Source of the DNA: a virus
Taxonomy: Duplodnaviria > Caudoviricetes
Length of the DNA stretch: 64,000 nucleotides
Reading direction: 5' to 3' (one strand)
IMG/VR virus record: IMGVR_UViG_2657245143_000002
Coordinates: 1 to 64,000 of that record
How positions within the stretch are numbered: the first letter of the stretch is position 1; every line of letters starts with the position of its first letter. Below, piece by piece: positions 1-61,362 of the stretch. The notes beneath the pieces were generated by a model, which was not told where the DNA came from, did no database searches, and worked only from the letters and a program-made list of their open reading frames with translations. The translations under genes were made by a program, and so were the position numbers.

Positions 1-75
1 ATGCTCGCCAACCTTTCGCCGTTGTTTTCCTATCCATCCAAGGCATGGCGCGGAAACCGCCGGACAGCCAAAGGC

Positions 76-900
76 ATGACTGGTTACGCGGTGGAGTTCC
101 ATATCCCGACGGAGCATTTCATGTCCTCACTGACCAAGGTGTCCTCCACGACGAGGGCGAGGCACAGGGCTTGGATACGCAGGTACGCGCGTCGCGTCTG
201 GCGGGCGGCAATCGAAGCGGGCGCATACAGGACGGAGCGCTTCGTCGCCTTGGCGATGGTGCAGTGGCCGGGGCCCTCGATCTACCCGGCGATGTCCTGC
301 GCGGAGACGCTGAAGCCGGTCATCGACGCCGGAACCGACGAGAGGCTGTGGCCCGACGACGACAATTCCCACTGCCGCGCCACCGTGTTCATGGAGGCAC
401 CCGGCCTCTCCGCGTATGGCGTGACGATGTGGGTCTACATCATACCGGTCGGGCGCATACCCGACATGCCCGCGTGGTTCGTGTCCATGATGCCGGGAGC
501 CAAGGGCACGCTCGCGTCCATCGAGCTGGACTCCGAGACCGAATGGCTCAACTCCAACCAGCGCAACGAGGGGCCGGAGCGCGACGAGAAGCTGGCCCGC
601 ATCATGGCGAAGGGCTACGACTCTTGGAAGGACAGGCCCGCGGTGCTGGGCGACGATGTGATGCTCGTGGCGGCGTGCCTCTGTCCGCATCCCGACCTTC
701 CGATGGATTCGAGTAATTCGGCCGAGGACACGTTGGCCTTCGCGGCCTGCGGGGCCACGCTCGGCAAGCTGCCGCAGAAGCCTGCGGTCGCCGTATCGAC
801 GCTCTCGCCCAAGCTCTCCCGCCCAAAGCACCACGGCCTTGAGGTCATGGCACTGCATATGCCGACGGGCATCTACCTGCCCACGCTCCTCACCGCCTGA
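76..900 (+). CDS. RusA-like Holliday junction resolvase-family protein, possibly two degenerate tandem domains
   Basis: ETLKPVIDAGTDERLWPDDDNSH resembles the RusA K..D...DD motif; second half has WLNSNQR...DSSNSAE; ATG at 76 chosen over the ORF start at 1. Confidence 0.45.
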   Translation: MTGYAVEFHIPTEHFMSSLTKVSSTTRARHRAWIRRYARRVWRAAIEAGAYRTERFVALAMVQWPGPSIYPAMSCAETLKPVIDAGTDERLWPDDDNSHCRATVFMEAPGLSAYGVTMWVYIIPVGRIPDMPAWFVSMMPGAKGTLASIELDSETEWLNSNQRNEGPERDEKLARIMAKGYDSWKDRPAVLGDDVMLVAACLCPHPDLPMDSSNSAEDTLAFAACGATLGKLPQKPAVAVSTLSPKLSRPKHHGLEVMALHMPTGIYLPTLLTA

Positions 901-941
901 GCCGCACACAGCCAACGGCGAAACGACGATCAGGAGGGCCC

Positions 942-1583
942 ATGACGAACGACGAATCCACCCAAGGCAACGACGGACCGACGACCAAGGGCAAGCGCCG
1001 CTGGCCCAAGGTCGTCGCGGGAATCACGGCGGGCTGCGTTGTGGCGGGCCTGCTGTGCGCGGCCCTGCTCATGCTCGGCTTGGCGGACGGCGGCCACGGC
1101 GGGACCAGCGCCCGCACGGAGGCGGAGCCGCGGCATTGCAAGGCTTGGGCGGGCGACTACCTCGCCCTCGGCGGCGGGTACGACCGTCTGACGCTGAAGG
1201 CCGACTGCTCGATGGAGGGCATCAAAACCTACGGCTACGGATACGTCTTCGACTACGTGCCGGGCTCGTTCACCGACCAAGGCAACGGCATCAGGGTCTT
1301 CGACGCGAAGGCCCATTGCGTGACGGATGCGGAGCTCTTTCAGCCCGGCCTCAACGGCAGTTGCAACGACTGCCCCGATTTCAAGGGACGCTTCGAGCTC
1401 CAGCCCACCGTGGACTCCCCGACGGGCGTCGTGCTCTACTTCGCCTCGCGCGACGGCCTCAAGTCGGATGGCTCCGACATGCACAACTACCTAGCGCCGG
1501 AGGGTTACAAGGGATACCGTGGCGGGGATGCCGAGGACGATGCCCCGGACCCCACGGGCGCGAGGAGCGTCGCACTGAGCTAG
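942..1583 (+). CDS. Membrane-anchored hypothetical protein
   Basis: AGGAGG RBS; basic N-terminus followed by a hydrophobic helix; Cys-containing outer domain. Confidence 0.7.
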   Translation: MTNDESTQGNDGPTTKGKRRWPKVVAGITAGCVVAGLLCAALLMLGLADGGHGGTSARTEAEPRHCKAWAGDYLALGGGYDRLTLKADCSMEGIKTYGYGYVFDYVPGSFTDQGNGIRVFDAKAHCVTDAELFQPGLNGSCNDCPDFKGRFELQPTVDSPTGVVLYFASRDGLKSDGSDMHNYLAPEGYKGYRGGDAEDDAPDPTGARSVALS

Positions 1584-2692: not shown

Positions 2693-2778
2693 GCCGCACC
2701 TCCAATGTTGATGTTCCGGGCCGGCATGGGGCGGAAAGGCACAGACGGTTGAGAGTGCTCGACAACGAAAGGAGAGCG

Positions 2779-17536: not shown

Positions 17537-17754
17537 CCATACCATTTTCCATTCCCCGCCCATGCTGCACCTGAAAGGAAGCACAGTCAACACCATGAGC
17601 CAGAAAGTCCGCATCGAAAGAGTCAATCCCTGCTACGGCATCGCAAATGCAATAGGTTGCGATGCTGACAGGAATCCGCACCATGCGGGCCGTGACCTAC
17701 ATGGTGATTGGAGGAAGCCACCATGCTGGGCACAGGATTTCAAGGAGGTACACG

Positions 17755-18435: not shown

Positions 18436-18664
18436 GACCACAAAACCCAAGGCCCTGCGCCTCGACGGCATGTTCTTCCGCGTCCAACGCGACGGGAGAT
18501 GAGTGAACCGCTGCGTGAGCGACCTCACCAAGGAGGAGCGCCGCGAGCTGTTCAAGGACCGCGACGCCGAATGGCACGAGGCCGTGATCGACCACCTGTG
18601 TGAGCGGATGCGCTCGCTGGCGGAGTTCTGCGGCGTCACCGGAAGGGGCGGCGACGGTGCGTGA
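18425..18664 (+). pseudogene. Small ORF interrupted by in-frame TGA at 18500-18502
   Basis: MTNETTKPKALRLDGMFFRVQRDGR*VNRCVSDLTKEE... continues in frame to 18664; GGAGG RBS. Confidence 0.55.
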
Positions 18665-18860
18665 AATCGTAATCGGCTCGACGTGGGCCAACCCGGTCGG
18701 CTGTCGTCTGAAGATCACCGAGAAGGTGTCCTCGCGTTCGATTGGCTTCCTCGAAGGAAGCGACGTGTACCGCGCGAGGTTCCTCGACGGCACCGGCGAC
18801 GGGACCTTACTGACGCCGACGGCGTTGGATGCCTGCGGTTACCGATTGGAGGAGCAATGA
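18657..18860 (+). CDS. Small hypothetical protein
   Basis: GTG start overlapping the previous ORF end; stop overlaps the next ATG. Confidence 0.5.
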   Translation: MREIVIGSTWANPVGCRLKITEKVSSRSIGFLEGSDVYRARFLDGTGDGTLLTPTALDACGYRLEEQ

Positions 18861-19192
18861 ACCCTGCCTTGAAGCCATGCCCCTTCTGCGGGGCCGGCAA
18901 TCCGCTGGTCGTGGGCGAGGCAACCTACGCCGTGCAGTGCGCCAAGTGCCACGCGAAGACCGAGCGCACCCGCTCGCATGAAGAGGCTGCGGAGTTGTGG
19001 AACCGGCGGACCGTCACCGGAGAGATGATCGACCGCGCCGCGTTCGCGCTGCTGCGACGCCGCACAAGCGGCCCCGATGCGGACGGGTTCGCCCGCGAGC
19101 AATGGGAGCAAAATCTGAGCGGCCTCCGCAGCACCTACCGCAGGGAGGCCCGCGCCATGCTGGAGGCCGCGTTGAACGGCGGCGCGGAATGA
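18857..19192 (+). CDS. Lar-family restriction alleviation protein
   Basis: LKPCPFCG...VQCAKC...EEAAELWNRR signature. Confidence 0.75.
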   Translation: MNPALKPCPFCGAGNPLVVGEATYAVQCAKCHAKTERTRSHEEAAELWNRRTVTGEMIDRAAFALLRRRTSGPDADGFAREQWEQNLSGLRSTYRREARAMLEAALNGGAE

Positions 19193-19473
19193 GCGCCGCC
19201 AGTCTGAAGCCGTGCCCGTTCTGCGGCGGCGAAACGATTGACCTGTCGTATGCCGACGGCCTGTGGCGGGCGGAGTGCGACGGCTGCGGGGTCTCCACGC
19301 CGGGGCAAACCGACTATGAAGAGGTGTTCCGGCTGTGGAACGGGCGGAAGGTCACGGACGGGATGATCGACAAAGCCTATGGCGTGCTGCGCGAAAGGAC
19401 GTTGCTCGGCCGGTGGACCGTGGGCAGGCAAGCGGTGGCGGACGCCCTCAAGGCCGCGCTGAGCGATGGATGA
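19189..19473 (+). CDS. Lar-family restriction alleviation protein (second copy)
   Basis: LKPCPFCGG...AECDGCG...LWNGR signature. Confidence 0.75.
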   Translation: MSAASLKPCPFCGGETIDLSYADGLWRAECDGCGVSTPGQTDYEEVFRLWNGRKVTDGMIDKAYGVLRERTLLGRWTVGRQAVADALKAALSDG

Positions 19474-19894
19474 TGGAGTCGCAGATGACCGCCGGCGGCG
19501 ACGATGCCGGGGCGATTTTCCGAATTTTGCGTTTTACAGAATGACTTTTAACAAAAACGCGGCGATGAAGTGAACGTCGCGGAGTGATAAAAGTCGAAAA
19601 TTCTGACGTTTTTTTGAAAGCGGACGATTCCGCAAACCATAAAACCGCCAAAAACGGCCTCTCGATAGGGGTCTTTGGGGTAAATGACGCTCCGAAAAAC
19701 AAAAAGAGCCCAAGAACCGCCAAAAAAGGGCGACCTTTGCCCATGTGGCTGATTCGCAAAACCATGTTATGCTGCAAGAACTGCCAGCTTTGAGGTCGGA
19801 GGCAGCGCTTGCCACGTCGGATGTCCAACGCGGACAGACCACGACGAGGCAGCTTCGGCAGACCGGACGGTCCGGTCGCCGCGCTGGAATCATT

Positions 19895-21667
19895 ATGTTT
19901 AACGACGCACAACCGAGAGTTCCCGCCGGACGTCATGATGGTGGACAGTTCACCCAAGCCGACGGGGGTGGCCGGACCCAAGACCTTGCCCCGACCCTTG
20001 GCGACTCCGCGATGGTCGATGCCATTGTGGCCGCAGGAGCTGAAGCCTATGTTGCAGGCATCAGCGCCGAGCGGGTGAGCACATATTTGAGAACCGTTGG
20101 ACGTAACGATCTGCTCGCGCCCGACGATGCCGCGATGCGTCTGACCCCGTGGGAAGGTTTTAACGCACAGGGGCACCCTTTGAGAAGGAAAAGCACTTGT
20201 CTGTCCAAGGAGCAAGAAAATCGGCTGGTCAAGGCAACAGACGAAGAGCCGGTGCGCACTTATTTGACCCGGAAGGAACGCCTAGGGCAACCAGTGGCGG
20301 GCCCTTTGCCGTGGGAGTACGTCAGACTCACGGAGGAAGGCCGGCGGGTGGCGCTTGAGAATCTGCTGCTTGAGGCGCACGATACGCAGGCTCTCGCCGC
20401 CCGGCAGCTTGGGTTCTCTGATGACGCAGCCGAGGAATACGCGCATTGGATTGTCAACTATCGCTTGGCCGAAGCAACGCGAAACCTTGGGAAGCCTGAT
20501 AGGGAAACCCTTGATTACCTTGCCACGACGCTTTTGACCAATGGGGTCGAGAAGTACGTCACGCGCCCCGTGCCGAAGCTCGACGCGGCTTACATTGGCA
20601 CCGCCCGGCTCGGGCGCGCATTTGAAGGAACGTACAGGGTCGGCGCCGATTTCACGCGGTATGTCGCCCTGCTTAAACCGAGAAATGCCGAAACCGAGGC
20701 GGCGCTGTGGAATTCGTGCGCCCGCAAGCGGATGGACGAGGCACTTGGCACCGCATGGGACGCCCAGTTTGACAAAATCAAAGCGAAGTTCGACGTCGAG
20801 CCGATTGGCTACTGGGAATTCTACGACCCTTACTCCGTCCAGTCTCGGTCGGGTATCACGCCTCTTAACTACAGGCCCGCGAAGGAGAATCCCCAGCGTC
20901 TAGCCGAGATCAGGAAGCTCGCCACCTCCGGCGACAGGCAGGCGATGGCGACGGTCGCGGCTTGGGATGCAGCAGTGAAAAGCGCGGGTTCACACAATGC
21001 GACGATGCTGAGCAGCGGACGTTCGAGCGTGCCTTTTGCTCGAAACAAGGTCCACAGGACCATCGAACTTCCTTATAAGCCCACATCAATGTCCGTCGAA
21101 GGCACACGCCGTGGTGCTCGTTACATTTTTCGATACACCGACGGTCTGACGTATTACCGGGATGGCGTCGCCCAGTTCCGCAACGCCCGGCCGGTTTCCC
21201 TGAACGAACCAGTCGGCACCGATGACCACGCGGCGGAGTTCGGTGACCTCCTTGTCGGCTCACGCGCCGGTGGTTCGTACCGCGAGCGTGCGGCCGTGGA
21301 CCCCGCCGAAATCTACGAGGCCGGCCAGCGCTACGCGAGCGCCGCCGCCATTGCCAAGACGCTGCCCGACAATGACGAAAACAACGCGAAACTGCGTGAT
21401 TTCTTTGGCATTGACTTACACGAAGGAATCAAGGACGAGCAAGCCCGCGATGCGGTCATTGCGCGAGACATCACGAAGGCGCGAGCCGAGGGCATGCCGG
21501 AAGCTGTGATTCGCCGCCTTTGGAAACCGCAGTCAATTGAAAAGGCCAACACCTTCGCCAAAGGCCTCGCCGCGCGCCGCGCCCGAGCCAAGGCCGAAGC
21601 CGCAGCCGCCCAGCGCCGTCTCCATGACCTTGCAGCCCAGCGCCGCGCCGCGCAGCCCGCCCGCTGA
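19895..21667 (+). CDS. Hypothetical protein with N-terminal QPRVPAGxxxGGQFT motif and a sigma-70 region 3.2-like segment
   Basis: Long ORF; PVSLNEPVGTDDHAAEFGDLL; start uncertain (19745-19895). Confidence 0.65.
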   Translation: MFNDAQPRVPAGRHDGGQFTQADGGGRTQDLAPTLGDSAMVDAIVAAGAEAYVAGISAERVSTYLRTVGRNDLLAPDDAAMRLTPWEGFNAQGHPLRRKSTCLSKEQENRLVKATDEEPVRTYLTRKERLGQPVAGPLPWEYVRLTEEGRRVALENLLLEAHDTQALAARQLGFSDDAAEEYAHWIVNYRLAEATRNLGKPDRETLDYLATTLLTNGVEKYVTRPVPKLDAAYIGTARLGRAFEGTYRVGADFTRYVALLKPRNAETEAALWNSCARKRMDEALGTAWDAQFDKIKAKFDVEPIGYWEFYDPYSVQSRSGITPLNYRPAKENPQRLAEIRKLATSGDRQAMATVAAWDAAVKSAGSHNATMLSSGRSSVPFARNKVHRTIELPYKPTSMSVEGTRRGARYIFRYTDGLTYYRDGVAQFRNARPVSLNEPVGTDDHAAEFGDLLVGSRAGGSYRERAAVDPAEIYEAGQRYASAAAIAKTLPDNDENNAKLRDFFGIDLHEGIKDEQARDAVIARDITKARAEGMPEAVIRRLWKPQSIEKANTFAKGLAARRARAKAEAAAAQRRLHDLAAQRRAAQPAR

Positions 21668-27086: not shown

Positions 27087-27088
27087 AC

Positions 27089-27125: not shown

Positions 27126-27220
27126 CCTAGGAGACTTCAGTTATTCCGCGTCGGTTCGGAGGGCTCCGGTTCGGCCTCGGCAAGCCTCCTCACCTCGCAT
27201 GGTCGGCATGGTGCGGATTC

Positions 27221-27556: not shown

Positions 27557-27604
27557 GTCCTTTCGACGCCGGACGCATGGGGCGGAGACAGGCTTATGAA
27601 AAAA

Positions 27605-27628: not shown

Positions 27629-27643
27629 GCTGTTCGGCGCGGC

Positions 27644-28858: not shown

Positions 28859-28978
28859 GTCGTGTCCTTTTGTTTTGTCGTTTCGATCTTGCGGGGACTT
28901 CATGGCGCGGATTCCTCTCCGCTTGGTTGGTGCCCTTGGCCGCTTGACCTTGTGGCATGGTCATGGTGCGGAAAACGG

Positions 28979-29945: not shown

Positions 29946-29991
29946 GTCCCGCTCCTTTCGTCGAGCTGGGCGGAGCATGGTGCGGAAAATC

Positions 29992-30327: not shown

Positions 30328-30377
30328 GTCGTTTCCTTCCTTCCTTGGTCGCGCCGTGCTTGGCGCGGATATGGAAA

Positions 30378-33488: not shown

Positions 33489-33532
33489 ATCGTCTCCTTT
33501 GCTTGCCTGCATATCGCATGGCGCGGATTCGC

Positions 33533-34588
33533 TCACAGCGTCCTCGCCGCCTGAGTGCCGAGCCGGCACACCAGACCCCAGAGCGTCATGCCATGCCTCG
33601 CCGCCAAGTTCTCCATGCGCCACTCAAGCTCCGCGTCGTCCCTCACGCCGCTCTTCGTTGACTGGTCGGCCAGATACATCTTGGCGACGGTCTCCCTGTC
33701 GTCGTCCTCCGGCAGCGCGGCCATGAGGTAGCGCAGCGTCCCGCCGTCGATGGTGTCGGTGAGCTTGGCGAGCATCAGCGCCGTCGCGCGTTCCTCTCCC
33801 ATCGTCGCGTCCAGCCCGGTCTCGTAGTCGTTGGAGTCAACGAACCTGTCGAGTGACCGGTGCCAGTAGCCCGCCTCGCGCAGGTCGTCGGCGGTCACGC
33901 GACCCAGAGACAGGAGCTCGCGGCGCTCGCGTCCCATCGGCCTCGGCACGACGATGTTCGAGTAGCCGTCGAGCAGCGAGCGCGGCGACTCCTTGGATTC
34001 CTTGGTCTCGTCAAGCAGGTTGCCGCCGTCCTCGGTGTCGTACTTGGAGATCGGCTCGTCCAGACTGCGCAGCGTGCGGGAAGCCACCGAGCGGGTGATG
34101 GCCTTGGAGATGCCACGGCACCACGCGCTCACGCTGGTTCCGTTGAGTGGCTTCCAGAACGAGTTGCCCTTCCACTGCGACACCTTGCTGTCGCCGGTCG
34201 AGATGCACAGCACCTTCTCGATGACGCGGCCCTTGACGGCGGGGACGACGGTGTGCCAGCCGTTCGGCACCCTGCTCGCCACGGTTTCCTCGATCAGTCC
34301 GAACGAGTCGAGGAGACCGGCGACCAGCTTGCGTTTCTCCGAGCCGGGCCGCAGGTCGTCGTCGGTCCATGTGAACGAGGCGACGAACCGGTCGAGCTCC
34401 CTCGTGTCCTCGAACGGCACATGCCTCGGCCTCTCCGTCGAGTGGCGTGTGCCGTCCTCGCCTTGGACCCTGAGCATGGCCTTCCTGACGATCTCGGCGT
34501 ACTGCCGTGTCTTGCCAAGCTCCTTGGCGCTCAGCCCGGCGGGTATGTCCGGGTCCCGTTCGATGATCGTGTTCCTGTGGTTAGCCAT
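33533..34588 (-). CDS. Hypothetical protein with sigma-70 region 2.3/2.4- and 3.2-like segments
   Basis: FWKPLNGTSVSAWCRGISKAITRSVASRTLRSLDEPISKYDTEDGGNLLD; ORF well supported, function tentative. Confidence 0.55.
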   Translation of the reverse strand: MANHRNTIIERDPDIPAGLSAKELGKTRQYAEIVRKAMLRVQGEDGTRHSTERPRHVPFEDTRELDRFVASFTWTDDDLRPGSEKRKLVAGLLDSFGLIEETVASRVPNGWHTVVPAVKGRVIEKVLCISTGDSKVSQWKGNSFWKPLNGTSVSAWCRGISKAITRSVASRTLRSLDEPISKYDTEDGGNLLDETKESKESPRSLLDGYSNIVVPRPMGRERRELLSLGRVTADDLREAGYWHRSLDRFVDSNDYETGLDATMGEERATALMLAKLTDTIDGGTLRYLMAALPEDDDRETVAKMYLADQSTKSGVRDDAELEWRMENLAARHGMTLWGLVCRLGTQAARTL

Positions 34589-34644
34589 CGCGCACCAGCC
34601 TTTCGTCTCCGAAATTTCACGCGCGGCATGGTGCGGATTCCGGT

Positions 34645-35463
34645 TCAGATGCCGAGCGTGTTCAGCGCCCTCAGCGCGTCGTCCGCGAACCGTTCGGGGC
34701 AGCCGGTCGGCGGCTTCGCGGTGGGGTCCTTCCTTCGGCGTTCGCGCCAAGCCTTGAACGCCTCGGATTGGGCCGCGATGGCCTCGACCGTCGGCGCGTT
34801 CCTCGGGCCGATGGCGTCCTCCGGTCCGATGCGGACCACACCCACGGAAGGCTTCCGCCCCTTGACGGGTTCGCCGGTGGCCCAGCGCCATGCGAGGCCG
34901 TAGGCGGTCGTTCCCTTCTTGATCGCCCTGCTGATTCCGCTCGCCGCCGCGCAGGGCCGGCCTTCCTCCCTCAGTGTTTCGACCGCCTCGGCCATGCAAC
35001 GGTAACGGCGGACGACGCCCTCGCGCGAGACGGACTCGACCGCGCCCTTGGTGGTCGGTCCGGTCGTCCACACCGTGTTCGACCTCGACCAGCGGGAGCC
35101 GGGGTCGAGCCTCGCAAGCCTCGCGTCGTCCGAGTAGCCGTGCCGGTATGCGTCGTCGCGGAACGAGTCGAAGGACAGCCAGCGCTCCTCGATGCCCTTC
35201 GGCTCGTGCAGCAGCCTGCGCCACAGCCGGTGCAGCCGGTCGCCCGACATGTTCGACTCGCCGCCCTGCGACCTGTGCGCGATGCGGTCGCCGCAGGTCC
35301 TCCTGCGCCCGGCGCGGAGTTCGCTCGCGGTCGCACGGCAGGTTCCGCCGCAGTCGCACCAGAGCACGTACTTCCTGCGGTCGGGGTCCCAGCCATGCAC
35401 GGTCAGGGTGCCGAAGCGCTCGCCGTCCCTCAGTGGTCTTCCGCTTGGCCTTCCGTCGTCCAT
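34645..35463 (-). CDS. Phage-type HNH-like endonuclease with NUMOD1-like repeats, probably degenerate
   Basis: GERFGTLTV...CDCG...CG, WLSFDSF, LARLD...SNTVW, RYRCMAEA...ISRAIKKGTTAYGLAWRW. Confidence 0.6.
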   Translation of the reverse strand: MDDGRPSGRPLRDGERFGTLTVHGWDPDRRKYVLWCDCGGTCRATASELRAGRRRTCGDRIAHRSQGGESNMSGDRLHRLWRRLLHEPKGIEERWLSFDSFRDDAYRHGYSDDARLARLDPGSRWSRSNTVWTTGPTTKGAVESVSREGVVRRYRCMAEAVETLREEGRPCAAASGISRAIKKGTTAYGLAWRWATGEPVKGRKPSVGVVRIGPEDAIGPRNAPTVEAIAAQSEAFKAWRERRRKDPTAKPPTGCPERFADDALRALNTLGI

Positions 35464-35550
35464 GCCATCGCCTTTCGTGAGTCGTTTTGAATCGTCCGTT
35501 AACACGGGCTGTGCGCGGCATGGCGCGGAAAGGCACAGCCTCATCTGACA

Positions 35551-37926: not shown

Positions 37927-37960
37927 GCTCCGTTCGATAGGGCGTTAACAATCATCAACG

Positions 37961-37991
37961 AAGCCCACGGCCTGTGAAAGGTCGTGGGCTT
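37961..37991. terminator. Hairpin between convergent genes
   Basis: AAGCCCACGGCCT...AGGTCGTGGGCTT. Confidence 0.6.
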
Positions 37992-37999
37992 CTCTTGTC

Positions 38000-38644
38000 T
38001 CAGTGTTGCTTCCGGCTCTTCGAGATTCTGCGGACCCTTTCGGTCATCGCAGCCATACCGGTTCCGCCGATGTCCAGATCGGCCATCTCCATGAGCAGTT
38101 CGGCGGGCGTGCTCCCGTTGCCGATGACGGCTTGGCGCACGTCCGCGTCCCTGTCCATCGAAAGCGCCCTCAGCGACCTGACCGGGGTGGAGGGGTGTCC
38201 CGCCACCGCCTCCCTGATGTCCGAGCGGTCGTCCCTCGCCAGTTCGGCCAGCCGCTCGGCGGGCAGACGCGGGTTGCGGGCGGCGCGGAGCCGCACAAGC
38301 GGGCTGGCGTCGCCCCCTAGACGGTCCAGCGTCTCGACGGGTGTGCGCATGTTGTCGGCCACGGCCCAGCGCACCTGCGGTTCGGTGTCCTCGGCCAGCC
38401 GGACCAGCATCTCGTTGGGGGTGCGGATGTTCCCCGCCACGGCCCATCGCACCGCCGGGTCGGTGTCGTGCGCGAGCTTCGTCAGCACTTCGGTGGCCGT
38501 GCGTGGATTCAGGGCCACCAGCCCCCTGACGCCGCCCGCGCCTTCGTCGGCCAGCGCCGCCAGCAGCTCCGGGTCGGTCGTCCCCTCACCCGCCAGAGTC
38601 TCAAGTTGCTCCTCGGTCAGGTTCCTCAGTTTCTCATTAACCAT
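38000..38644 (-). CDS. Leucine-rich-variant/HEAT-like repeat protein
   Basis: 24-aa repeats LA.D....VR.AVA.N..TP...L. Confidence 0.8.
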   Translation of the reverse strand: MVNEKLRNLTEEQLETLAGEGTTDPELLAALADEGAGGVRGLVALNPRTATEVLTKLAHDTDPAVRWAVAGNIRTPNEMLVRLAEDTEPQVRWAVADNMRTPVETLDRLGGDASPLVRLRAARNPRLPAERLAELARDDRSDIREAVAGHPSTPVRSLRALSMDRDADVRQAVIGNGSTPAELLMEMADLDIGGTGMAAMTERVRRISKSRKQH

Positions 38645-38762
38645 GTCGGCCTCCTAGATCGTACGGGTGCGGCATGGCGCGGATTTCCGTGACCGGTCTT
38701 GGCGGGCGTGCTAACAACCGGCACTAGACTGGAGGAAACCCGACGAGGACGAGGGGAGCATC

Positions 38763-39711
38763 ATGGGACTGCTTGATTCACTGAGGGGCTTGCTTGGTCG
38801 TGGAGCCGCCGCACCGGAAAGCAACCGACCGACGAACATCGACCCTTGGCGAACACCTGCGAGCGCGGGCGGTGGAAACCCGTCCCTGAGCGTCACGCTG
38901 CGGCTGCCGGACTGCGTGCAGCTCAGCGGCACCACGACGACCTGCAAGGACGCCATGCTGGGATTCGCCCGGCGTCACGGCATCGACCGGCGGGGCGGTT
39001 GCCGCGAGACCGTGGGCCGGCTCCGGCACGAATCGGACAACCCCAAGAGCGACAAGGCCATCGCCGTGGTGGTCGAGGGTGAGCGCGTCGGCTATCTTCC
39101 GGGCGCGTACTTAGAGGGCTTCCGTCTGATCGAGGGTGCCGCCAAGGAGGTGCCCGTGCAAATCTTCACGGCCCTGCTCCCGAAGGCCTCCGCTGCGAGG
39201 CGTGGGTCTGGCTGGGCGACGGGACGCCTGAGTGGCTGTGGTCGGAGACGAACCATCCGCCCATGTCTCCGCAGGAGAAGGCGGCGGCCAACCACCGGGA
39301 CAACGTGGAGCTCGTGCGCGAGGGTCTGGCCGAGGGCGGCGGACGCGCCGAGGAGTTCAGGCGCGGCACGGTCAACGGCGTGCATTATCTGGAGACGGTC
39401 GAACCGATCAAGCAGCTCAAGCGCGAGGGCAGGCTGGACGAGGCGTTGGCGCTGTGCATGCAATCGGTGCAGGCCGCCGAGAACGAGGCGGTCGCGGAGC
39501 GGGCCGAGGGCTTGGGGCGCGAGCCTGCGCCGTGGTACACGGAGCAGGCGGCCATCGTGCTGCGCAAGCTTGGTCGGCTTGACGAGGAGGAGGCACTGCT
39601 GCGCCGGTATCTCGACCATGTGCCGCCGGAGAGCATGGGCAACACCGGGCCGAGGGACATCAGGGAGAGGCTTGACAAGCTGGTGGCGAAGCGGGCGAAG
39701 GCCGGCAAGTG
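38763..39711 (+). CDS. HIRAN-domain protein with helical C-terminus (apparent frameshift near 39185)
   Basis: LRHESDNPKSDKAIAVVVEGERVGYLP; joins the ORF beginning at 39263. Confidence 0.7.
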
Positions 39712-43935: not shown

Positions 43936-45072
43936 CTATTCTGCTGGCATCAGGTCCTCGACCTTGGCCCAGTCCTCAGCCGGCGTGGCTTCGGGGAGCT
44001 CGTCGGGGACGGTGGGCACGTCGCCCTTGCCGGGCAGTTCGCCACGGTCGATCATCGCCTCGATCTCGCCCATGCCGAGGACGCGCAGGGTGCGCACCGG
44101 GGTGTCGCGGTCGGCTCCGGCCACGAGCACGTCGCGCATGAGCTGGGCCCTGCGGAAGCCCACGCGGTCGGCCACGCCTCCGGGCCACGGTCCCTTGATG
44201 ACGCGGCCTCCCAAGTCGGCGTCCAGTGGTCGCCAGTCGCTTCTGCGGTAGGTCTTGGGGTTGGCGAGCCATCGTCCTGCGGCGAGGTCCTTTGGTTCGA
44301 TGGCGGCCTCGCAGCGCACGAGCAGGTCGAGCGCGGAGACCTCGGATTCCACGGCGTCGCTGGGCAGGGTTCGCTCCAGCGCCCTGCGGTAGGAGTCCCC
44401 GTCGTTGATGGGCTCGGTGCGGGCGAGCCTGTAGGCGTCGGGGGAGCGCTTGATGCGTTCGATGTCCCCGGCGGGCTGGGGCAGTCCCATCGGCGGGCCG
44501 GGGATGACCCGGTTGGGTTCGATGTTGCCCCAGTCGCACAGGCGGACGAGCGCGGCCAGCGTCCTGTTGTCGAGCCGTCCCCACCGGCGTGCCAGTTCGA
44601 TGGCGTCGAGCCTTGTGGAGGCCGACAGGCAGAACGTGAACGCACCCGGCCCCTTGAGCTTGTCGGGGTCGTAGGTCTCGGGGTATGCGTCCGGGTCGCG
44701 TCCGGCGGGGTCGTAGATGTGGATGTGCTCGCGGGGCAGCTCCACGATCTCGCGTCCGTGCTCGCGTGCGACGGCGGCGAGCAGGTTCACCGCCGCCTGA
44801 CGTCTGAGCGCCTGAATCGGGATTGCCAAGTCGATGCGTGGTTCGCCGTCCGCGCCGGTCAGCCACCGGAGCTCGTCGCCGGGCTTGCTTGGCCGCACCC
44901 TCGGGTCGATGATGTTGCGCGAGCGCAGGGCGGGGCTCGCGGTCGCCAAGCCGATGCCCGGTCCGATCAGGTAGCCCCTGCCGTGGCACCTGTTCGCCCA
45001 GTCGGCCAGAATGTCGATGCCTTCGAGCCAGCCGTTCTCCCTGAGCAGGTTCGTTTCCTTGGTGTCGTTCAT
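43936..45072 (-). CDS. Hypothetical protein coupled to primase-helicase
   Basis: ATGA overlap with the upstream gene; 378 aa. Confidence 0.7.
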   Translation of the reverse strand: MNDTKETNLLRENGWLEGIDILADWANRCHGRGYLIGPGIGLATASPALRSRNIIDPRVRPSKPGDELRWLTGADGEPRIDLAIPIQALRRQAAVNLLAAVAREHGREIVELPREHIHIYDPAGRDPDAYPETYDPDKLKGPGAFTFCLSASTRLDAIELARRWGRLDNRTLAALVRLCDWGNIEPNRVIPGPPMGLPQPAGDIERIKRSPDAYRLARTEPINDGDSYRRALERTLPSDAVESEVSALDLLVRCEAAIEPKDLAAGRWLANPKTYRRSDWRPLDADLGGRVIKGPWPGGVADRVGFRRAQLMRDVLVAGADRDTPVRTLRVLGMGEIEAMIDRGELPGKGDVPTVPDELPEATPAEDWAKVEDLMPAE

Positions 45073-48000
45073 GCTCTTGCCTCGCTTTCGTTCGTGGTGA
45101 ATATGTCGTCCTCCTCCGGGTCGTCGTATGGGGCCACGGTGGCGAAGCCGAGTTGCCCGGCGAAGTCGCGTTCGGCCCTAGCCAAGTCGTGGGAGTCATC
45201 GGTGGGCGGTGCCGTGTATCCGGTCGCGTTCCCGCGGCCCGCCTTCCACGGGTCGTCCGGCGTGACCACGGTCGTGGGTTTCTTGGCCGACGGGGCTCCG
45301 ACGGGCTCCGGGTCCCAACCGGGTTCCGCGGGCGTCACGGCCTCCACCGGCTTCGGGGCCTCGACGGGCCTTTCCGTGTCCGGCTTCGCGTCCATCGGAC
45401 TCGCGCCCTTGGGACCGTCGTCCGTCGGTTCGGGTTCGGGGCCGTTCCCCGGTTCGTCGCCGTCCTCACCGAACCACACCGCCTCGGGGATGCACAGCAT
45501 GCGCAGCCTGCGTCCGGCGATGCGTATCTGGCGCACGGGGGAGTCCTTCTGGTCGTGCATGGTGTAGGGGGCCATCGCGTTCTTCACGTCACTCACAGTC
45601 TGTTCGAGCCTCAGCTCGCGTATGAGCGTGTCCGGCGCGAAGCAGTAGGCGTTGCCCTCGTCCGGGAACGCTTTGACGTAGCCGATGATCGGCTTGTTGC
45701 CGTCGTCCGCGCCGTTGACGGGCTGGCCCATCTCGTTGCCGAGCGTCACGCGCCCGGTCATCACGTAGGAGCGCAGCCTGTCCAGCAGGGAGCCGGTGTC
45801 GTTGGCGAGCGAGTCCGCCGCCTTCAGGTGGTTGGCGATGATGCCCGCCACCGCCGGCTCGCCATGTCCTTGGTCGAGCTTGGCGTGCCACGACTCCTTG
45901 GCCGCGTCGCTGAGCCACAGGCCGGTCTCGTCCATGAACTCTGTCCAGTATTGAAGTCCGGTCAGGATGCCCGCGACCACAAGGGATTCTCGCGTGCTCA
46001 GGCGCAGGCCACGCGAGCGCCCGGCCTTCCAAGCCGCCGAATCGTTGACGTATTCGGCCCACATGTTGCGACGGTCCGCTATCCTCGCGGAGAAATCGCC
46101 GCCGTCGGCCTTCTCGGACTCGATGCGCCGGGCCAGCCAGCGCAGGTACAGCGGTATGACCTGCTGCCACTCGCGGGCGCTGGTCATGCGCTGGATTCCG
46201 GTGAGCAGCTTGTTGCCGCCCTCGTCCAGCTCGTCGCACGGCAGGTACGCGGCCATGAACGACCCGATGACGTCACGCAGGCCCTCGTCAGCCCCGGTGG
46301 CCTCATTGAGCTGCTTGGCCGACGACAGGGATTGCGGCGTGTCCATCGGCACCTGATAGATGCGCGACAGGGCGCTCGCCGCGGCGTCGTCGGGGATGCG
46401 CTCGCCCACGATGAACGGCAACGGTTGACTGTCGTCACGGCGGCGCAGGCCCACGGAGCCGTTCTGCACCTGACCGCGCATGCGCTCGCCGGAACCGTGG
46501 GCGCGGCGCACGATGCTGTCGAATATCTCATTGAGCTTGACCCGCTCCACCCGGCTGGCCGGCATCTTCATGTCGTCCACGAACACGGGGAAGTTGTCGA
46601 TGCCACGCATGGCGAGGTCGATGGCGTTCGACGTGCTGCTGAATGCGAGCATCGATTGGTTGCGGGTCGGACCCCACGCGGAGCCGACCAGCGCGTTGTA
46701 CGTCTGCATCAGGGTGGACTTGCCATTCGAGAAGCCGCCGAAATACGCGACCACGCACGCGGGCGGGGTCGGCAGGAAGCTCAGCGCCAACGCGCCCAGC
46801 GAGGCGTCGGAACGCACCGGCTTGGCCCACACGCCCCTTAGACCGAGGGTAAGCATGCTCGCGGCCCGGCGCACGTCGTCGTTGACCGCCAAAGGCTCCA
46901 TGCGAATCTTGCGCATCTCGCCGCCCAGATCGGACTTCGTGACGCACGCCGCATCACCTTGAACCCAACCGTCGGCGGTCATGGACCCCTGCGGCAGCGT
47001 GAAGCTCGCCCGCCCGCCGTCGGCCGGAATGTCCCAGCCGATATGCGCCACCCGATAGGTCTCACGGCTCCCGGTCGAGGACTCCCACAGGGAATCCAGC
47101 ACCAGCCTGACCGTCCTCGGGTCGCGCGGCACGCGGATGGACGTCGCCCGGTCGTCCGGCAGGCTCCTGACAAGCGAACCCAAGTCCTCGACCTGCTTGA
47201 GAGTGAGATTGCGCATCGGCACCACGGTCGGCCTGCCTCCCGGATTGAAGATCGCCGCCTCCACGTCGAACAACGGCTCGCCCAACGGGGCGTCCGGGTC
47301 CTTCGGGTTCGCCTTCCAGCGGATAGCGTTCGTCACGCGGACGGTGCAGCCCATCAGCGCATTGTCCGGCAGCACGGTCGGGCGCTCGCCGGGCGCGAGG
47401 CCGTCACTGCCCTCGTCGTCGCGCAGCAACGCGAGGCCGAGGTCATAGCGCATCACCACCGGCAGGTTGTTCTCCAACGGGACGCACGCGGGCAGGTCGC
47501 CCGCGTCCTTCAGCATGTTGCGCATCAGGCGGTCGCGCTCGCCGTCGGTCAGCTTCCCCATCTCGCCGTCGATGTCGGCCTTCGTGCCGAGCCTGTTCTG
47601 CAAGGTGGCGAACAGCACGGTCGGCGTGCCGCCGTTGCCGCGCAGCACGGGGTAGAGCTCGCGCAGCGACGAGAGCAGCATCGAGGCGGAGCGGTTCACG
47701 TTCGGGTTGGAGCTCACGTCGGCGTCGAAGGCGACCACGAAGCGGGTGGCCTTCGAGTGGCGCAAGAGGTGGTGCAGGTCGTCGCCGGGGAAGCCTTCGG
47801 AGGACCAGTTCCAGCAGCCCAGCAGGCCCACGGCGGCGACGCCATCGGGCAGGTGCCGGGATGCGGCCATAGTCTGCTTGGTACCCTCTACGAGCATGAT
47901 GGTGCGGGCGTCGCGCCAGTCGGTCGGCTGGTCCTCCGGGGCGAACAGGATGCCGCCCTCGCCGCGCTGCTGCACGTATTTCATCGCCCGGCCCTTGGCG

Positions 48001-48227
48001 TCCTTGCGGGGACGGTCGGGGCGGGCCTGCCACACGACGCCGCCGGACACCCGGTGCAGGGCGAACACGAGCGCCGGGGTCGGGCAGTCGATGCGCGGGG
48101 GCAGGGAGTCGGGCCGGTCTGCGGTGTACAGGTCGCCTTCCGGGTAGTCGCGCGGGTCGATGGCGTGGTCCAGCAGGAACCGCCTGTGGACGTCCGCGAG
48201 TCTGTGAGTCGTTTGAGTGTCCGTCAT
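45069..48227 (-). CDS. Primase-helicase (DUF3854/Toprim-like N-terminus, DUF927-like region, P-loop helicase)
   Basis: WQARPDRPR...KY, LVEGTKQ, GLLGCWNW, VVAFDAD; HIGW; GGFSNGKST, VFVDD; GGAGGG RBS. Confidence 0.8.
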   Translation of the reverse strand: MTDTQTTHRLADVHRRFLLDHAIDPRDYPEGDLYTADRPDSLPPRIDCPTPALVFALHRVSGGVVWQARPDRPRKDAKGRAMKYVQQRGEGGILFAPEDQPTDWRDARTIMLVEGTKQTMAASRHLPDGVAAVGLLGCWNWSSEGFPGDDLHHLLRHSKATRFVVAFDADVSSNPNVNRSASMLLSSLRELYPVLRGNGGTPTVLFATLQNRLGTKADIDGEMGKLTDGERDRLMRNMLKDAGDLPACVPLENNLPVVMRYDLGLALLRDDEGSDGLAPGERPTVLPDNALMGCTVRVTNAIRWKANPKDPDAPLGEPLFDVEAAIFNPGGRPTVVPMRNLTLKQVEDLGSLVRSLPDDRATSIRVPRDPRTVRLVLDSLWESSTGSRETYRVAHIGWDIPADGGRASFTLPQGSMTADGWVQGDAACVTKSDLGGEMRKIRMEPLAVNDDVRRAASMLTLGLRGVWAKPVRSDASLGALALSFLPTPPACVVAYFGGFSNGKSTLMQTYNALVGSAWGPTRNQSMLAFSSTSNAIDLAMRGIDNFPVFVDDMKMPASRVERVKLNEIFDSIVRRAHGSGERMRGQVQNGSVGLRRRDDSQPLPFIVGERIPDDAAASALSRIYQVPMDTPQSLSSAKQLNEATGADEGLRDVIGSFMAAYLPCDELDEGGNKLLTGIQRMTSAREWQQVIPLYLRWLARRIESEKADGGDFSARIADRRNMWAEYVNDSAAWKAGRSRGLRLSTRESLVVAGILTGLQYWTEFMDETGLWLSDAAKESWHAKLDQGHGEPAVAGIIANHLKAADSLANDTGSLLDRLRSYVMTGRVTLGNEMGQPVNGADDGNKPIIGYVKAFPDEGNAYCFAPDTLIRELRLEQTVSDVKNAMAPYTMHDQKDSPVRQIRIAGRRLRMLCIPEAVWFGEDGDEPGNGPEPEPTDDGPKGASPMDAKPDTERPVEAPKPVEAVTPAEPGWDPEPVGAPSAKKPTTVVTPDDPWKAGRGNATGYTAPPTDDSHDLARAERDFAGQLGFATVAPYDDPEEDDIFTTNESEARA

Positions 48228-48299
48228 AATAAGCCCTCCAAAATTCCAGTTGCCGTATGGCGCGGATTTCGCACGCACGGCTGTCCGGGAAAAACGAAA

Positions 48300-48348: not shown

Positions 48349-49109
48349 TCAGAAGTCGAGCTCCACGTCATCGCCGCCCGCGATCAGGTCCTCGGCCCTG
48401 AGCTCCGTGGCCTCCGGCTTCGGGGCGGCACCGAAGATGCCGTCCTCCTCGTCGTCGGACTGCCTGCCGACCAGACCGCCGTTGGGCACGTTGGTGCCGG
48501 TGAAGGCCGCGAAGTCCTTGTCGGGGTCGGAGGAGCCGCCGAGGCGGTCGCCGTCGCGCAGCTTCAGCAGGCTGTTGAGGTACAGGCTCACGCCGACCTT
48601 GCCCTTCTTGTCCACCCACGCGCGGGCGCTGATGCGGGCGGAGCCGTAGATGCCGTCGTACCAGTTGTCGGGGTCGCGCTCGGAGTCCTTGGCGATGGTT
48701 TTGCTTTCGGTCAGCAGGTAGAGGCCGGGGGCGTAGCGGTCGCCGGAGGTGGCGGTCAGGACCCAGCTCGACAGATTCTCTTCGTGCTTGCTGTAGGGCT
48801 CGGTGTCGCCGTCCTTGATCGGGTCGGAGAAGTTGGCGGGGTTGAGCGGCAGGCTGATCTTGCCTTCGTCGCGGGCGGCGAGGAGGGCCTGCCTGACGAT
48901 GTGCTCCAGCGCCTCGTGGGTCGCCTCGTCGCTCTTGGGATGATGATTCGCGCGGAATAGCTCTTGTACTCGCTCTTCCTGCGGTCGTCGCCCACGCCGA
49001 ACCACTGGTAGTCGGGCTCGGTCACCTGTAGGAAGTTCAGGCGGGCCTCGCCGGTGGTCGTCGCCGTGTCGCGCTTCTTGGTCTTGCTGTTCTTGGCTGG
49101 TGCAGCCAT
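48349..49109 (-). CDS. Phage-type ssDNA-binding protein, DUF2815/gp2.5-like (apparent frameshift near 48935)
   Basis: TGEARLNF...YSARIIIP/KSD...PIKDGD...GVSLYLNSLLKLRDGDRLGG, acidic tail ending in F. Confidence 0.8.
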
Positions 49110-49211
49110 ATTCGCTCCTTTGTGTAGTGCGTTTTCGTTCCATCGTGTTCCGATGGCTCCACCGACCGGACGGTCGTTGTGCCGCCGGCATGGTGCGGAT
49201 TTTCGCCCCGT

Positions 49212-49373
49212 CTAGAAGAAGATCGCGCGGACGACCGCGACCGCCAGAATCACGACGGCGATGCCCGCCGCCCAAGAACCCCACTGCTCGCCGTTCTCCG
49301 CGAAGCTGCGCTCGTAGTGCTCCGGCTTTTCGGCCGCCCCGGTCCCGGCCTTGGTTTCGTTCTCGTCGCTCAT
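49212..49373 (-). CDS. Small membrane protein
   Basis: AAGGAG RBS; C-terminal TM helix. Confidence 0.5.
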   Translation of the reverse strand: MSDENETKAGTGAAEKPEHYERSFAENGEQWGSWAAGIAVVILAVAVVRAIFF

Positions 49374-58258: not shown

Positions 58259-58334
58259 GGCGGCGAGGATAAGGCGGGGCGGAAGATCACGCACCATGCG
58301 GGAGACGACGAAAAACTAGTTGGAGGAGTGCCAG

Positions 58335-59519: not shown

Positions 59520-60091
59520 GGCCGTGCCACCTCCGTGCCAGCCCTGTGCCACCCGAAAACGTTGAAATTCCGCCATTCTTGATTTTCGGCCGAAAACGGC
59601 CGTGCCACCGGCCCCGGTCGTCCTCGACCGGAGGGCGAAAATGACGAAAACCCTTGTGGGAGTAGGGCTGAGGGGTTGTATAAGTAAGTAATAATATATA
59701 TGAAATATCTATTATTTATATATATATTTGGCACACTTGGCACGGCACAACGCATATTTCATCCCCTCGCGCCTATACGCTCCGCCGATTTCATTCCTGA
59801 AAATCGCGTCCGTGTAAGACACCCTTCAAAAGCCGTGCCACCCGTGCCACCGTGCCAGCCCTACTCCCACAAGGGTTTTCGGCATCGACCGGGAAACAGA
59901 CTGTGCCAGTCGTGCCGGTGTGAAATCACCCCAAAAATCGCCTCTGAGCCCTACTCCCGCTTGGGTTTTCATGGGGTGGCACAGCGAAAAACGGCGCATG
60001 AGCAAAACTGCGAGGCGACTTAACAAATCGTTAACTCTACCTGTAAAAACAGCTCATGCGATTTTTGGGAAAGTCGAAAACCGTGCCACCC
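59520..60091. repeat. Origin-like non-coding module, copy B (inverted homologue of 13146-13740)
   Basis: AT-rich core ~59680-59730; many GTGCCAC/GTGCCAG; three AGCCCTACTCCC-type elements. Confidence 0.75.
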
Positions 60092-60236
60092 TCCTCCGCT
60101 CGCGGGGCCCCGCCCTCCCACATGCGGCACCGGACGGCTTGGCTACGCATTTTCGGGCCGAAACCTCCCCAGTTTTTCTGCCACTTCGGGTTTTCCGCGC
60201 CATGACGTCCATAGAAGCAGAAGGAAAGGAACAGCC

Positions 60237-61187
60237 ATGACCATGAGAACCGGAAGCATCAGCAGAATCCTGATCGGCGCGTCCGCCGCCCTCGCCGTGG
60301 CGCTCGTCGCCGTCCTCGGCGTCGGCGCTTGGAGGTCGGCCCACGAACCGACGCCGGAGGCACCGCAGGCGTCCGAATCCACTGCGGCCGGCCTCAAGGC
60401 ATCGCAATCGCAGCTCGACCGCGCCGTGGAGTACGAGACGGCGCTGCGCCAGTGGGGCGTCCAGTACCCCAAGGACCTGAAGGAGTGGTCCGGCCTCTCC
60501 ACGGAGGACCTGCTCGGCAGGACCCGCACGCCGGATAACCTCGACGCCTCCGTGCTCGGCAAGGCCACCGGCTCGGCGCTCCCGGATTCCAAGGACGCGA
60601 AGATCGGCCCGCACTCGAAGTCCGACCTCTGCAAGGACTGGGGCGACGACTCGTGGCAGTGCCAAGAGAGCCCCGACATGCTCGCCTACGAGCGCAACAA
60701 CCACTGGTCGATGGGCGCGACGTTCATCGAGGGCCCGACCGCCAAGGACAACGGCGACGGCACCATCGACGTCACGGGCACATTGCGCTGGACGATCTGG
60801 TCGGACGCGAGGGACACGCTCTCGCAGGAGGGCCACTGGGCCTTCGCGCCGCTCCAGTACGACGTGCCCGTGTCCGACCGCCTGAAGGTCGGGGCGGACG
60901 GCACTGTGGTCTACAGGAAGGACCTCAAGGCCCAGCCTTGGTGGGCCGACCCGTTCTTCAGCGATTGGAGGGACCAGTCCGCCACCTCCGCCGGTGCCGG
61001 CCTGACCCGCACCCGTATTGTGCTGCCCGTCAGCGGCGACGCGCCCGACGTGGGTCTGAACGGCGACGCCGACGAGCCGGTGGTGAGGAACCCCGCCGAT
61101 CAGGGCGACCCGGACATCGACTGGTCGCTGTGGTATGACGAGGGGCTGCTGCTGCCGTCGGGCGGAGAGGGGAGGCAGGGGCTCTAG
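60237..61187 (+). CDS. Membrane-anchored/secreted hypothetical protein
   Basis: AAAGGA RBS; N-terminal TM helix. Confidence 0.75.
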   Translation: MTMRTGSISRILIGASAALAVALVAVLGVGAWRSAHEPTPEAPQASESTAAGLKASQSQLDRAVEYETALRQWGVQYPKDLKEWSGLSTEDLLGRTRTPDNLDASVLGKATGSALPDSKDAKIGPHSKSDLCKDWGDDSWQCQESPDMLAYERNNHWSMGATFIEGPTAKDNGDGTIDVTGTLRWTIWSDARDTLSQEGHWAFAPLQYDVPVSDRLKVGADGTVVYRKDLKAQPWWADPFFSDWRDQSATSAGAGLTRTRIVLPVSGDAPDVGLNGDADEPVVRNPADQGDPDIDWSLWYDEGLLLPSGGEGRQGL

Positions 61188-61362
61188 AAGTCGGCAGCCG
61201 ACATCGGCATCGAAGCCAAGGCGACCGGGAACGGTCGCCTTCTTCGTTTCGGGCACCCCTTGGTTCATTCCAAGGGTTCTCTCTTTTTTTGCCTTGGCGA
61301 TTCCGCACCATGCCGCCTCCGAAGGACAGTCCCCTGTGGACCTATTTTTCAGGAGGTAGCCT

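Follow-up and report, generated by a model that had tools for sequence, protein, structure and literature searches.

A recurrent upstream box and a candidate sigma-like reader in a conjugative-type element of the Bifidobacteriaceae

The IMG/VR record IMGVR_UViG_2657245143_000002 (Duplodnaviria; Caudoviricetes) carries one short word, TCCGCRCCATG, many times in front of its genes, which raises the question of what this word does and what reads it. The original prediction, made from the first 64,000 bases of the record (the window analysed here), took it for a single-box promoter or an operator of a factor encoded by the element itself. The record is 88,343 bp long with 65.6% G+C and is classed in its collection as a provirus of 41% estimated completeness. 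It represents a trimmed section of a host contig, so that a closed circular replicon is ruled out and the motif, which had been called element-wide, is so over the recorded part. Rough gene calling gave 76 genes covering 86% of the record (non-coding share 13.9%), and 70 of them were scanned against Pfam, the other six being open reading frames (ORFs) of 41-67 amino acids (aa). The matches include FtsK/AAA_10-type ATPases, a Phage_lysozyme2+CHAP wall hydrolase, a second CHAP protein, an LPXTG pilin-like protein, a sortase, a tyrosine integrase, two Lar-type restriction-alleviation genes, a DNA methylase fragment match and IS605 OrfB. A replication and nucleotide set is also present, consisting of a dnaN-like gene, a DUF3854 primase-like gene, an Enc34-type single-stranded DNA-binding protein (SSB), a PIF1-type helicase and nrdD, and no capsid, portal or terminase family was found among the scanned genes. 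Judged by this Pfam content, the element is of a Gram-positive conjugative type and not a phage. Homologues of its proteins are found in Bifidobacteriaceae genomes.

We call the word box A. In the form TCCGCNCCATG it occurs 15 times in the window as compared to 0.27 copies expected from 100 dinucleotide-preserving shuffles (standard deviation 0.49, largest count 2), and 20 exact copies are present in the whole record. All 15 exact positions of the original prediction match CATGGBGCGGA, those tabulated with a minus-strand box as plus-strand matches of this complement and those at 17675, 60194 and 61302 as minus-strand matches (Table 1). Among its variants, those at 30359 and 48256 differ from the box by one mismatch each; the one at 58288 has two and scores at chance level. 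With a weight matrix derived from 18 intergenic or border copies, 18 sites in the record score at least 18 bits and three weaker ones are located at 30359, 48256 and 69940, all three intergenic, sense-oriented and rightly spaced. Five further matches fall at 9-12 bits, of which four are intragenic and one is the intergenic 58288; this is the level of shuffled sequences, which give 0-7 matches at 9 bits or above. Copies of the box have unique flanks and do not belong to longer repeats.

The box is not a host signal. In the 88 kb of the element, 12 copies of the 12-mer TCCGCRCCATGC are present (136 per Mb), as against 0-11 scattered copies per 0.6-3.3 Mb in 236 Bifidobacteriaceae genomes, where no cluster was seen among the matches listed. 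Per Mb, the word is thus about 100 times rarer in these genomes than in the element.

Seventeen of the 20 copies in the record lie outside the gene calls (P ~2e-12), and the original prediction likewise had the copies it found in the window outside genes or at their boundaries. Two copies beyond the window are truly intragenic (record positions 67753 and 71017), and both of them carry T at the variable position, a base seen in no intergenic copy. The copy at 44 falls within the N-terminal part of the first ORF of the record and points off its end. Without exception, the 16 sites flanked by co-directional genes are oriented in the sense of the gene that follows (P ~1.5e-5), as had been predicted. 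Between the G of CATG and the start codon there are mostly 23-58 nt, and the longer spacers at 17675, 27207 and 49189 contain a small unannotated ORF or end at an uncertain start. The spacings predicted for dnaN, the primase-like gene, the HEAT/LRV gene, the genes ending at 33488 and 29945, nrdD and the SSB region are all reproduced minus one, a matter of counting convention. Pfam also backs the list of targets, namely replication and nucleotide genes, Lar-type anti-restriction genes, an HNH-like gene and small genes without family, and the box is missing in front of the VirB4/AAA_10-like, FtsK-like, LPXTG-pilin and sortase genes; the original prediction had noticed this for virB4-, virB6- and pilin-like genes. 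The sites past the window, the family-wide pattern and the second word described below go beyond the original prediction.

Alignment of the sites reveals one contiguous conserved block of 14 nt, WWTCCGCRCCATGC, and no second block or -35 element within 50 nt upstream. After the box there are six unconstrained positions, followed by a pyrimidine (Y) at +19 and a purine (R) at +20 (20 of 21 sites each, P ~1e-5 each), and A is preferred at +22. This conserved Y-R pair comes 9 nt past the box. PMC4782308 describes a Y-R pair at -1/+1 as universal among start sites. GC-rich hairpins with T-rich tails are located directly upstream of the boxes at 27576, 28962, 30359 and 61302 (0-25 nt away for several), one of which, at 27628-27605, is confirmed by a terminator scan. 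Since spacers of 23-32 nt must also hold a ribosome-binding site (RBS), transcription would have to start in or just after the box, and hairpins of terminator type 0-25 nt upstream leave no room for another promoter. A scan of 13 kb for sigma-70-type consensus promoters found two weak sites only, neither at a box. The hexamer TANNNT is absent from the box and, in 14 of 20 box regions, from the 60 nt around it; since it is also missing from 37 of 40 upstream regions without a box, this test is uninformative on host promoters. A host promoter of the extracytoplasmic function (ECF) type, GGAAT ... GTT, was considered by eye and rejected, as GGAA occurs at about one third of the sites only and has no -10 partner. 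The ATG of the box itself was likewise rejected as a start codon or leaderless start in this element, since its reading frame agrees with that of the following gene in no more than 3 of 15 testable cases.

The top-scoring box of the element stands before a gene for a 351-aa protein, which is our candidate for its reader. A word-indexed search returned one near-identical relative of this protein, and an exhaustive search returned 28 relatives at E <=0.001 with 25-38% identity apart from the near-identical one. The names that homologues bear in the records examined all read 'hypothetical protein', and the organisms are Bifidobacterium crudilactis, B. adolescentis and Bombiscardovia coagulans. 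An AlphaFold2 model from a 29-row alignment reached a predicted local distance difference test (pLDDT) score of 81. When it was compared with 48,161 Protein Data Bank (PDB) chains by VIA-align, the top 14 of the 50 rows shown were sigma factors, aligned over residues ~35-177. The best match was region 2 of RpoS (5h6x_B; Z 6.9, root-mean-square deviation 2.6 A, 91 of 96 residues aligned), and the other rows were sigma-32, SigE, SigC 'Pribnow box recognition region', SigW, SigB, pro-sigma-K, HrdB, SigA domain 2, CnrH, SigK, sigma-S, sigma-70 and a chain of the T4 gp45-dependent activation complex (7d7d_F, Z 5.4). Judged by title, about 30 of the 50 rows shown are sigma chains. The low-confidence Atlas model of the protein has structural neighbours which all belong to Sigma70_r2 clusters. 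These comparisons place a predicted fold resembling sigma domain 2 at residues ~60-177, at modest Z scores. The C-terminal domain (residues 205-351, 147 residues) is all-helical in the model with a pLDDT of 91.7, and the absence of a clear sigma-4 match in it would fit promoters without a -35 element. An invariant W..P....W.R block of the family resembles FSTYATWWIRQ of the host SigA by eye, a likeness without statistical backing. Four bifidobacterial genomes were searched for Sigma70_r2 genes and have two each.

Relatives of the 351-aa protein come with a box of their own. A profile search located a homologue in 8 of the 236 Bifidobacteriaceae genomes; among 401 genomes sampled from the order, G001, which is the query genome itself, was the only one to have it. 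Loci were also found in B. coagulans and B. castoris. We compared 40 kb around each of the eight homologues (17 kb for G027, where the contig ends); as G060/G067 and G039/G047 are near-duplicates, these amount to about six independent elements. Box A is not enriched there, with single chance-level copies in four of the regions (L013, L019, L022 and L027). Instead, the relatives carry another oriented word, GGACGCAT(A/G), preceding genes with ribosome-binding sites, with 8 copies in the region of G001, 6 in G184, 16 in G002, 7 in G067, 9 in G060, 4 each in G039 and G047 and 2 in G027. The 9-mer clusters at the homologue: 9 of its 25 genome-wide hits fall within 70 kb in G001 and 8 of 16 within 52 kb in G184, where the total is no higher than that of the reversed-word control and the clustering alone counts. 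In every relative the homologue is preceded by this box or a one-mismatch copy of it. The first in-frame ATG of the homologue follows the T of CAT by 10 nt in G001, 11 in G184, 12 in G039, 12 in G027 and 13 in G002, and two of these five ATGs are the N-termini of the database proteins P0004 and P0016. A Shine-Dalgarno-like sequence between box and ATG is absent from four of the five, and G184 has AAGG. An ATG 10-13 nt past the box, mostly without Shine-Dalgarno sequence, fits a leaderless mRNA, and the distance from box to ATG in the relatives equals the distance from T10 to R20 in box A. Leaderless transcripts make up 15% of the mapped starts in B. pseudolongum (PMC4782308).

Two GGACGCATA boxes stand back to back, ~11-17 nt apart, beside the sigma-like gene in G184 (19736-19764) and G002 (18644-18675; region coordinates), where they appear to form a divergent promoter pair. 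The GC-rich 9-mers CGCGCATGC and GGGCGCGCA were also picked up in the relatives and were set aside, as they look like coding words and not upstream motifs. The sigma-like gene belongs to a four-gene module, present at 31282-37926 of the window and in G001, G002, G027, G039, G047, G060 and G067. In most relatives the P-loop gene of this module immediately precedes the sigma-like gene in the same orientation; in the present element and in G067 the two are divergent.

Taken together, we favour, with somewhat better than even confidence, the reading that box A is a private -10-type single-box promoter of an integrative, conjugative-type element in a Bifidobacterium-like host, read by the sigma-like 351-aa factor which the element encodes. 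Between the promoter and the operator left open by the original prediction, the strict orientation, the hairpins, the Y-R pair, the boxed gene with its sigma-domain-2-like fold and the relatives all speak for the promoter, and the operator keeps a smaller share of our confidence, weighed below. The box would act as an extended -10 element without a -35 partner, bound by the element-encoded specificity factor that host core RNA polymerase would carry. Transcription would start ~9-10 nt past CATG at the conserved purine +20, placing the A of CAT near -11 and the box at roughly -21 to -8. Some trigger, either basal transcription or read-through from the box of the upstream HNH-like gene, would supply a first dose of the factor, which would then bind core polymerase through its sigma-2-like domain and raise its own synthesis. 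The top-scoring box before its gene would give such a positive autoregulation, a self-reinforcing switch. From there the factor would turn on the genes for the clamp, the primase-like protein, the SSB, the helicase and NrdD, the Lar cluster and small genes without family. The regulon would thus comprise ~21 transcription units, with dnaN, the primase-like gene, the SSB region, the PIF1-type helicase, nrdD, the Lar-type and HNH-like genes, the factor and small genes as its putative members, and would leave out the transfer and surface genes.

Several observations weigh against this reading, most of them concerning the reader. The sigma assignment comes from the fold and is modest. All Z scores are below 8, which for helical domains may mean a common arrangement only, as the tool itself cautions, and with the whole model Foldseek returned rows that are mostly sigma chains at E values of only 0.3-2. 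Neither Pfam (E <=1) nor NCBIfam nor PHROGs gave anything for the 351-aa protein or its 28 homologues, a six-frame search of the record for Sigma70_r2 (PF04542) had no match at E <=10, and a profile search of PDB sequences with the family gave only meaningless matches (E >=0.056). The hhalign probability is 0.2% against the host SigA and 0.1% against an ECF profile. The best Z of the C-terminal domain against the PDB is 3.5, with no sigma-4 chain listed. Seven of the eight relatives keep three neighbours of the gene, which code for a protein of 769 aa with weak P-loop matches, a ParA-like one of 298 aa and a small one of 85 aa, and which by synteny are linked to the boxes as closely as the sigma-like gene. 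None of the three was assigned to a DNA-reading family by Pfam, NCBIfam or PHROGs, and they are weaker reader candidates than the 351-aa protein. On the side of the box, the pooled GGACGCAT sites of the relatives have no clear Y-R pair, and the co-variation of factor and box consists of two box types only. Relatives sharing box A itself were found neither by megablast against phages and plasmids, nor by tblastn with the sigma-like and primase-like proteins, nor by a three-protein search for related loci; a 16-mer scan of viral contigs came up with single copies at 11 loci, as expected by chance. With no same-box relative there is no phylogenetic footprint of box A. Finally, the assembled contigs of the public runs X1-X4 over 26500-39500, among them one metatranscriptome with patchy contig cover of this stretch, carry no read ends and are mute on start sites.

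The promoter might also be read by a different factor of the element, either one with an unfamiliar fold, a split partner or the 590-aa protein encoded at 19895-21667, in which case the 351-aa protein would serve, for example, replication or partition beside the ParA-like gene. We regard this as unlikely, although every argument for a promoter still applies to it, the 351-aa protein lacks sequence similarity to sigma factors and its gene sits in the conserved module with the P-loop, ParA-like and 85-aa proteins. A stretch of 27 residues in the 590-aa protein also matches region 3.2, the 'finger' stretch, of the host SigA with 41% identity (E 0.03), a match to which hhalign gives a probability of only 1.7%, and Atlas has no named neighbour for this protein. 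What favours the 351-aa protein over such a reader is that sigma domain 2 fills the top rows of its fold search and that its gene is boxed both here and in the seven distinct related elements, one-mismatch copies counted. The 590-aa protein, encoded on the plus strand, carries an N-terminus with an RVPAGR..GG.F tag, and Pfam finds no family in the part scanned, residues 152-590. Rather unlikely, in our judgement, is that the box is an operator at which an element-encoded activator or repressor acts beside promoters of host type, in the manner of the global regulators of large plasmids. Dispersed identical upstream sites would be expected from a global regulator too, and since the upstream regions of the element generally lack recognisable sigma-70-type signals, unusual host promoters could have been missed. 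Most operators are dyads, and the logo of box A is asymmetric and its orientation strict (16 of 16 in sense), so the symmetry of a dyad operator is not there. No second conserved block is available to be the promoter proper, the boxes lie 0-25 nt from upstream terminator-like hairpins and down to 23 nt from the start codon, and the ATG 10-13 nt past the box in five relatives leaves no place for a separate promoter downstream.

An action of the box in RNA or on elongating polymerase, through leader processing, translation or antitermination of the ops type with a NusG paralogue, would suit its position in possible 5' leaders, always in sense and 23-80 nt before start codons. It would need a promoter upstream of each copy, and several copies directly follow terminator-like hairpins, with no conserved block upstream. 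Rfam has no match in the window at gathering score, and beyond the window only tRNAs and a transposase-associated RNA; as the ATG of the box is so rarely in frame, it is not a start codon either. We therefore consider an RNA-level role improbable. Very improbable is that the box has no regulatory role and is a repeat, a recombination or methylation site or a by-product of composition. It does contain CATG, and the record has the match to a DNA methylase fragment, but shuffles give only 0.27 copies of the word, and its copies have unique flanks and are confined to upstream positions in sense.

A second word, GCACAGHC, is set apart by its placement alone, as its total in the window is not above chance (13 copies vs 10.0 expected). 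In the record 24 of its 28 copies are intergenic (P ~3e-17), and 18 copies lie 21-138 nt, mostly 25-51 nt, before a co-oriented start. These show Y at +14 in 16 of 18 and R at +15 in 18 of 18, so that the word stands 7 nt before its Y-R pair. It precedes many genes without box A, including those for LPXTG/LAXTG surface proteins, the AAA_10 ATPase, the 'tagged' array and IS605 orfB, and one copy stops 6 nt short of the first base of a tRNA-Val gene. GCACAGHC is not enriched in the relatives, and no reader for it was found. From this placement it may be a second private promoter class of the element.

A broader proposal combines these points, and we hold it tentatively, as something possible in which we have less than even confidence: that elements of the Bifidobacteriaceae encode an unrecognised family of sigma-like factors, each of which would activate itself, often from a leaderless transcript, through a single-box promoter without a -35 element and would have its own box, TCCGCRCCATG here vs GGACGCAT in the relatives. 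Under this proposal the factor would consist of a sigma-2-like domain and a new C-terminal domain, without detectable sequence similarity to sigma-70, and would redirect host RNA polymerase to these promoters. The present element would run a phage-like programme of two classes, with box A serving replication, nucleotide supply and anti-restriction and GCACAGHC serving transfer, surface, 'tagged' effector and tRNA genes.

The sites and the features associated with them are collected in Table 1.

Table 1. Box A sites, GCACAGHC copies and associated genes. Coordinates are those of the window unless marked otherwise.
Feature	Position	Strand	Remarks
Box A (TCCGCGCCATG on minus strand)	44..54	-	24.8 bits; points off left end, target off record
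Box A	2725..2735	-	32 nt before dnaN-like gene 1580-2692 (DNA_pol3_beta, E 2e-18)
Box A	17675..17685	+	Before run of small ORFs; first RBS-preceded ATG at 17755
Two Lar-like genes (Lar_restr_allev)	18857-19473		Reached by small-ORF run behind box at 17675
Box A	27207..27217	-	159 nt before zinc-ribbon repeat (DUF4379) gene 25107-27047; 120 nt if TTG 27086 is the start
Box A	27576..27586	-	25 nt before gene 27221-27550; 12 nt behind hairpin and T-run (27628-27605)
Box A, proximal of tandem pair	28901..28911	-	RBS-preceded ATG of 419-aa gene 42 nt downstream
Box A, distal of tandem pair	28962..28972	-	Directly behind GC-rich hairpin with T-rich tail
Box A	29976..29986	-	30 nt before gene 29604-29945
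Box A variant (..CCAAG)	30359..30369	-	13.2 bits; 31 nt before gene 29992-30327; directly behind hairpin
Box A	33517..33527	-	28 nt before gene 33024-33488 (154 aa, no family)
Sigma-like gene, candidate box reader, 351 aa (P0001)	33533..34588	-	Predicted fold
Box A	34627..34637	-	25.8 bits, top score; 38 nt before sigma-like gene
Box A	35519..35529	-	55 nt before HNH-like gene 34645-35463 (phrog_374, E 5.5e-11); GCACAGCC word directly follows
Box A	38673..38683	-	28 nt before HEAT/LRV-repeat gene 38000-38644
Box A variant (..CCATA)	48256..48266	-	15.4 bits; 28 nt before 1052-aa DUF3854 (primase-like) gene 45069-48227
Box A	49189..49199	-	80 nt before RBS-preceded ATG 49109
Weak variant, two mismatches	58288..58298	+	9.8 bits; chance level, probably not a site
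Box A	60194..60204	+	32 nt before gene 60237-61187
Box A	61302..61312	+	50 nt before nrdD 61363-64194 (NRDD, E 2.4e-163; runs past window end); behind hairpin and T-run
GCACAGHC	2739, 13099, 14071, 17581, 31272, 35507, 35533, 54677, 56743, 59899		In window
GCACAGHC	64302-86520 (record)		Beyond window

A few further features of the element may be mentioned. Behind the box at 49189, the frame of the Enc34-type SSB (48349-49005, minus strand) lacks the first 34 profile positions, and the ATG at 49109 opens a 117-aa ORF in a frame other than that of the SSB (window 48349-49284); the split could be due to a frameshift, a sequencing error or the presence of two genes. Run X4 contains a 61.6-kb contig of a relative, 90-95% identical as compared over window 26500-39500, which skips 30010-30365, i.e. 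the gene behind the variant box at 30359, and has further small insertions and deletions within the 28.7-30.4 kb run of small genes. Eight tRNA genes (Ser, Tyr, Val, Phe, Gln, Trp, Arg and Thr) are arrayed inside the element at record positions 73754-74904, and an ARAGORN 'tmRNA*' call overlapping this array is probably spurious. An IS605-type OrfB/TnpB gene together with an Rfam Transposase-2 RNA (81.2 bits) is located at record positions 81581-82885, its protein being 73% identical to the copy in G067.

Element-encoded sigma factors with private promoters are already known, and bioRxiv 10.64898/2026.10.01.756105 describes Sig7-8 of Tn916, SigN of pBS32 and T4 gp55/gp33 as such factors, partly autoactivating. 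The Tn916 system, Sig7-8 with its promoter Psig7 (Gomberg and Grossman, bioRxiv 10.64898/2026.10.01.756105), likewise belongs to a Gram-positive integrative conjugative element with its own sigma-type factor and an autoactivating switch, and differs in that it relies on a pair of small proteins whose sigma regions are recognisable, with a single main promoter. Here, in contrast, one 351-aa protein without sigma signature at the sequence level would serve ~21 dispersed single-box promoters, all as predicted only, and the targets are replication and anti-restriction genes, not transfer genes. SigN of the Bacillus subtilis plasmid pBS32 is described in the same text (bioRxiv 10.64898/2026.10.01.756105) as a plasmid sigma factor with positive feedback which drives plasmid genes. 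Its host phylum, promoter and regulon size are unlike those found here. SigN is also a recognisable member of the sigma-70 family.

In T4 late transcription, gp55, which consists of sigma domain 2 only, acts with gp33 and the clamp gp45 at a single -10-type box without a -35 element. The present element resembles it in the single box without -35 and in a factor that would be little more than a sigma-2-like domain, and it carries its own dnaN-like clamp gene behind a box, a role for the clamp being pure speculation. It differs in that its box is GC-rich and 14 nt long, not AT-rich, and in that no gp33-like partner was identified. The KorA and KorB sites of IncP plasmids are palindromes bound by dimeric repressors at variable positions. 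Like box A, they recur a dozen times or more as identical short sequences in upstream regions across a single replicon; box A is unlike them in its asymmetry, its constant sense orientation and its short distance to the start codon. Promoters of T7-type single-subunit RNA polymerases consist of one contiguous conserved block ending near the start site, and box A shares the single contiguous block. No RNA_pol match was found by Pfam among the called proteins scanned, and a six-frame search for PF00940 had no match, the controls likewise, and is uninformative. The literature on Bifidobacterium conjugative elements, sigma factors and start sites, as far as covered, yielded nothing on this system. 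Box A, its GGACGCAT counterpart, the unannotated protein family and the apparent leaderless autoregulation in Bifidobacteriaceae elements look new.

Bifidobacteria have very few sigma factors and are hard to engineer. If true, the proposed system would explain how GC-rich foreign genes are expressed without signals of the host type, and would show how replication and anti-restriction are timed around transfer. The factor and its compact 14-nt promoter would form an orthogonal pair for bifidobacterial genetics. If the fold-based reading of the 351-aa protein is right, it would also mean that sigma-like factors are being missed by current family models.

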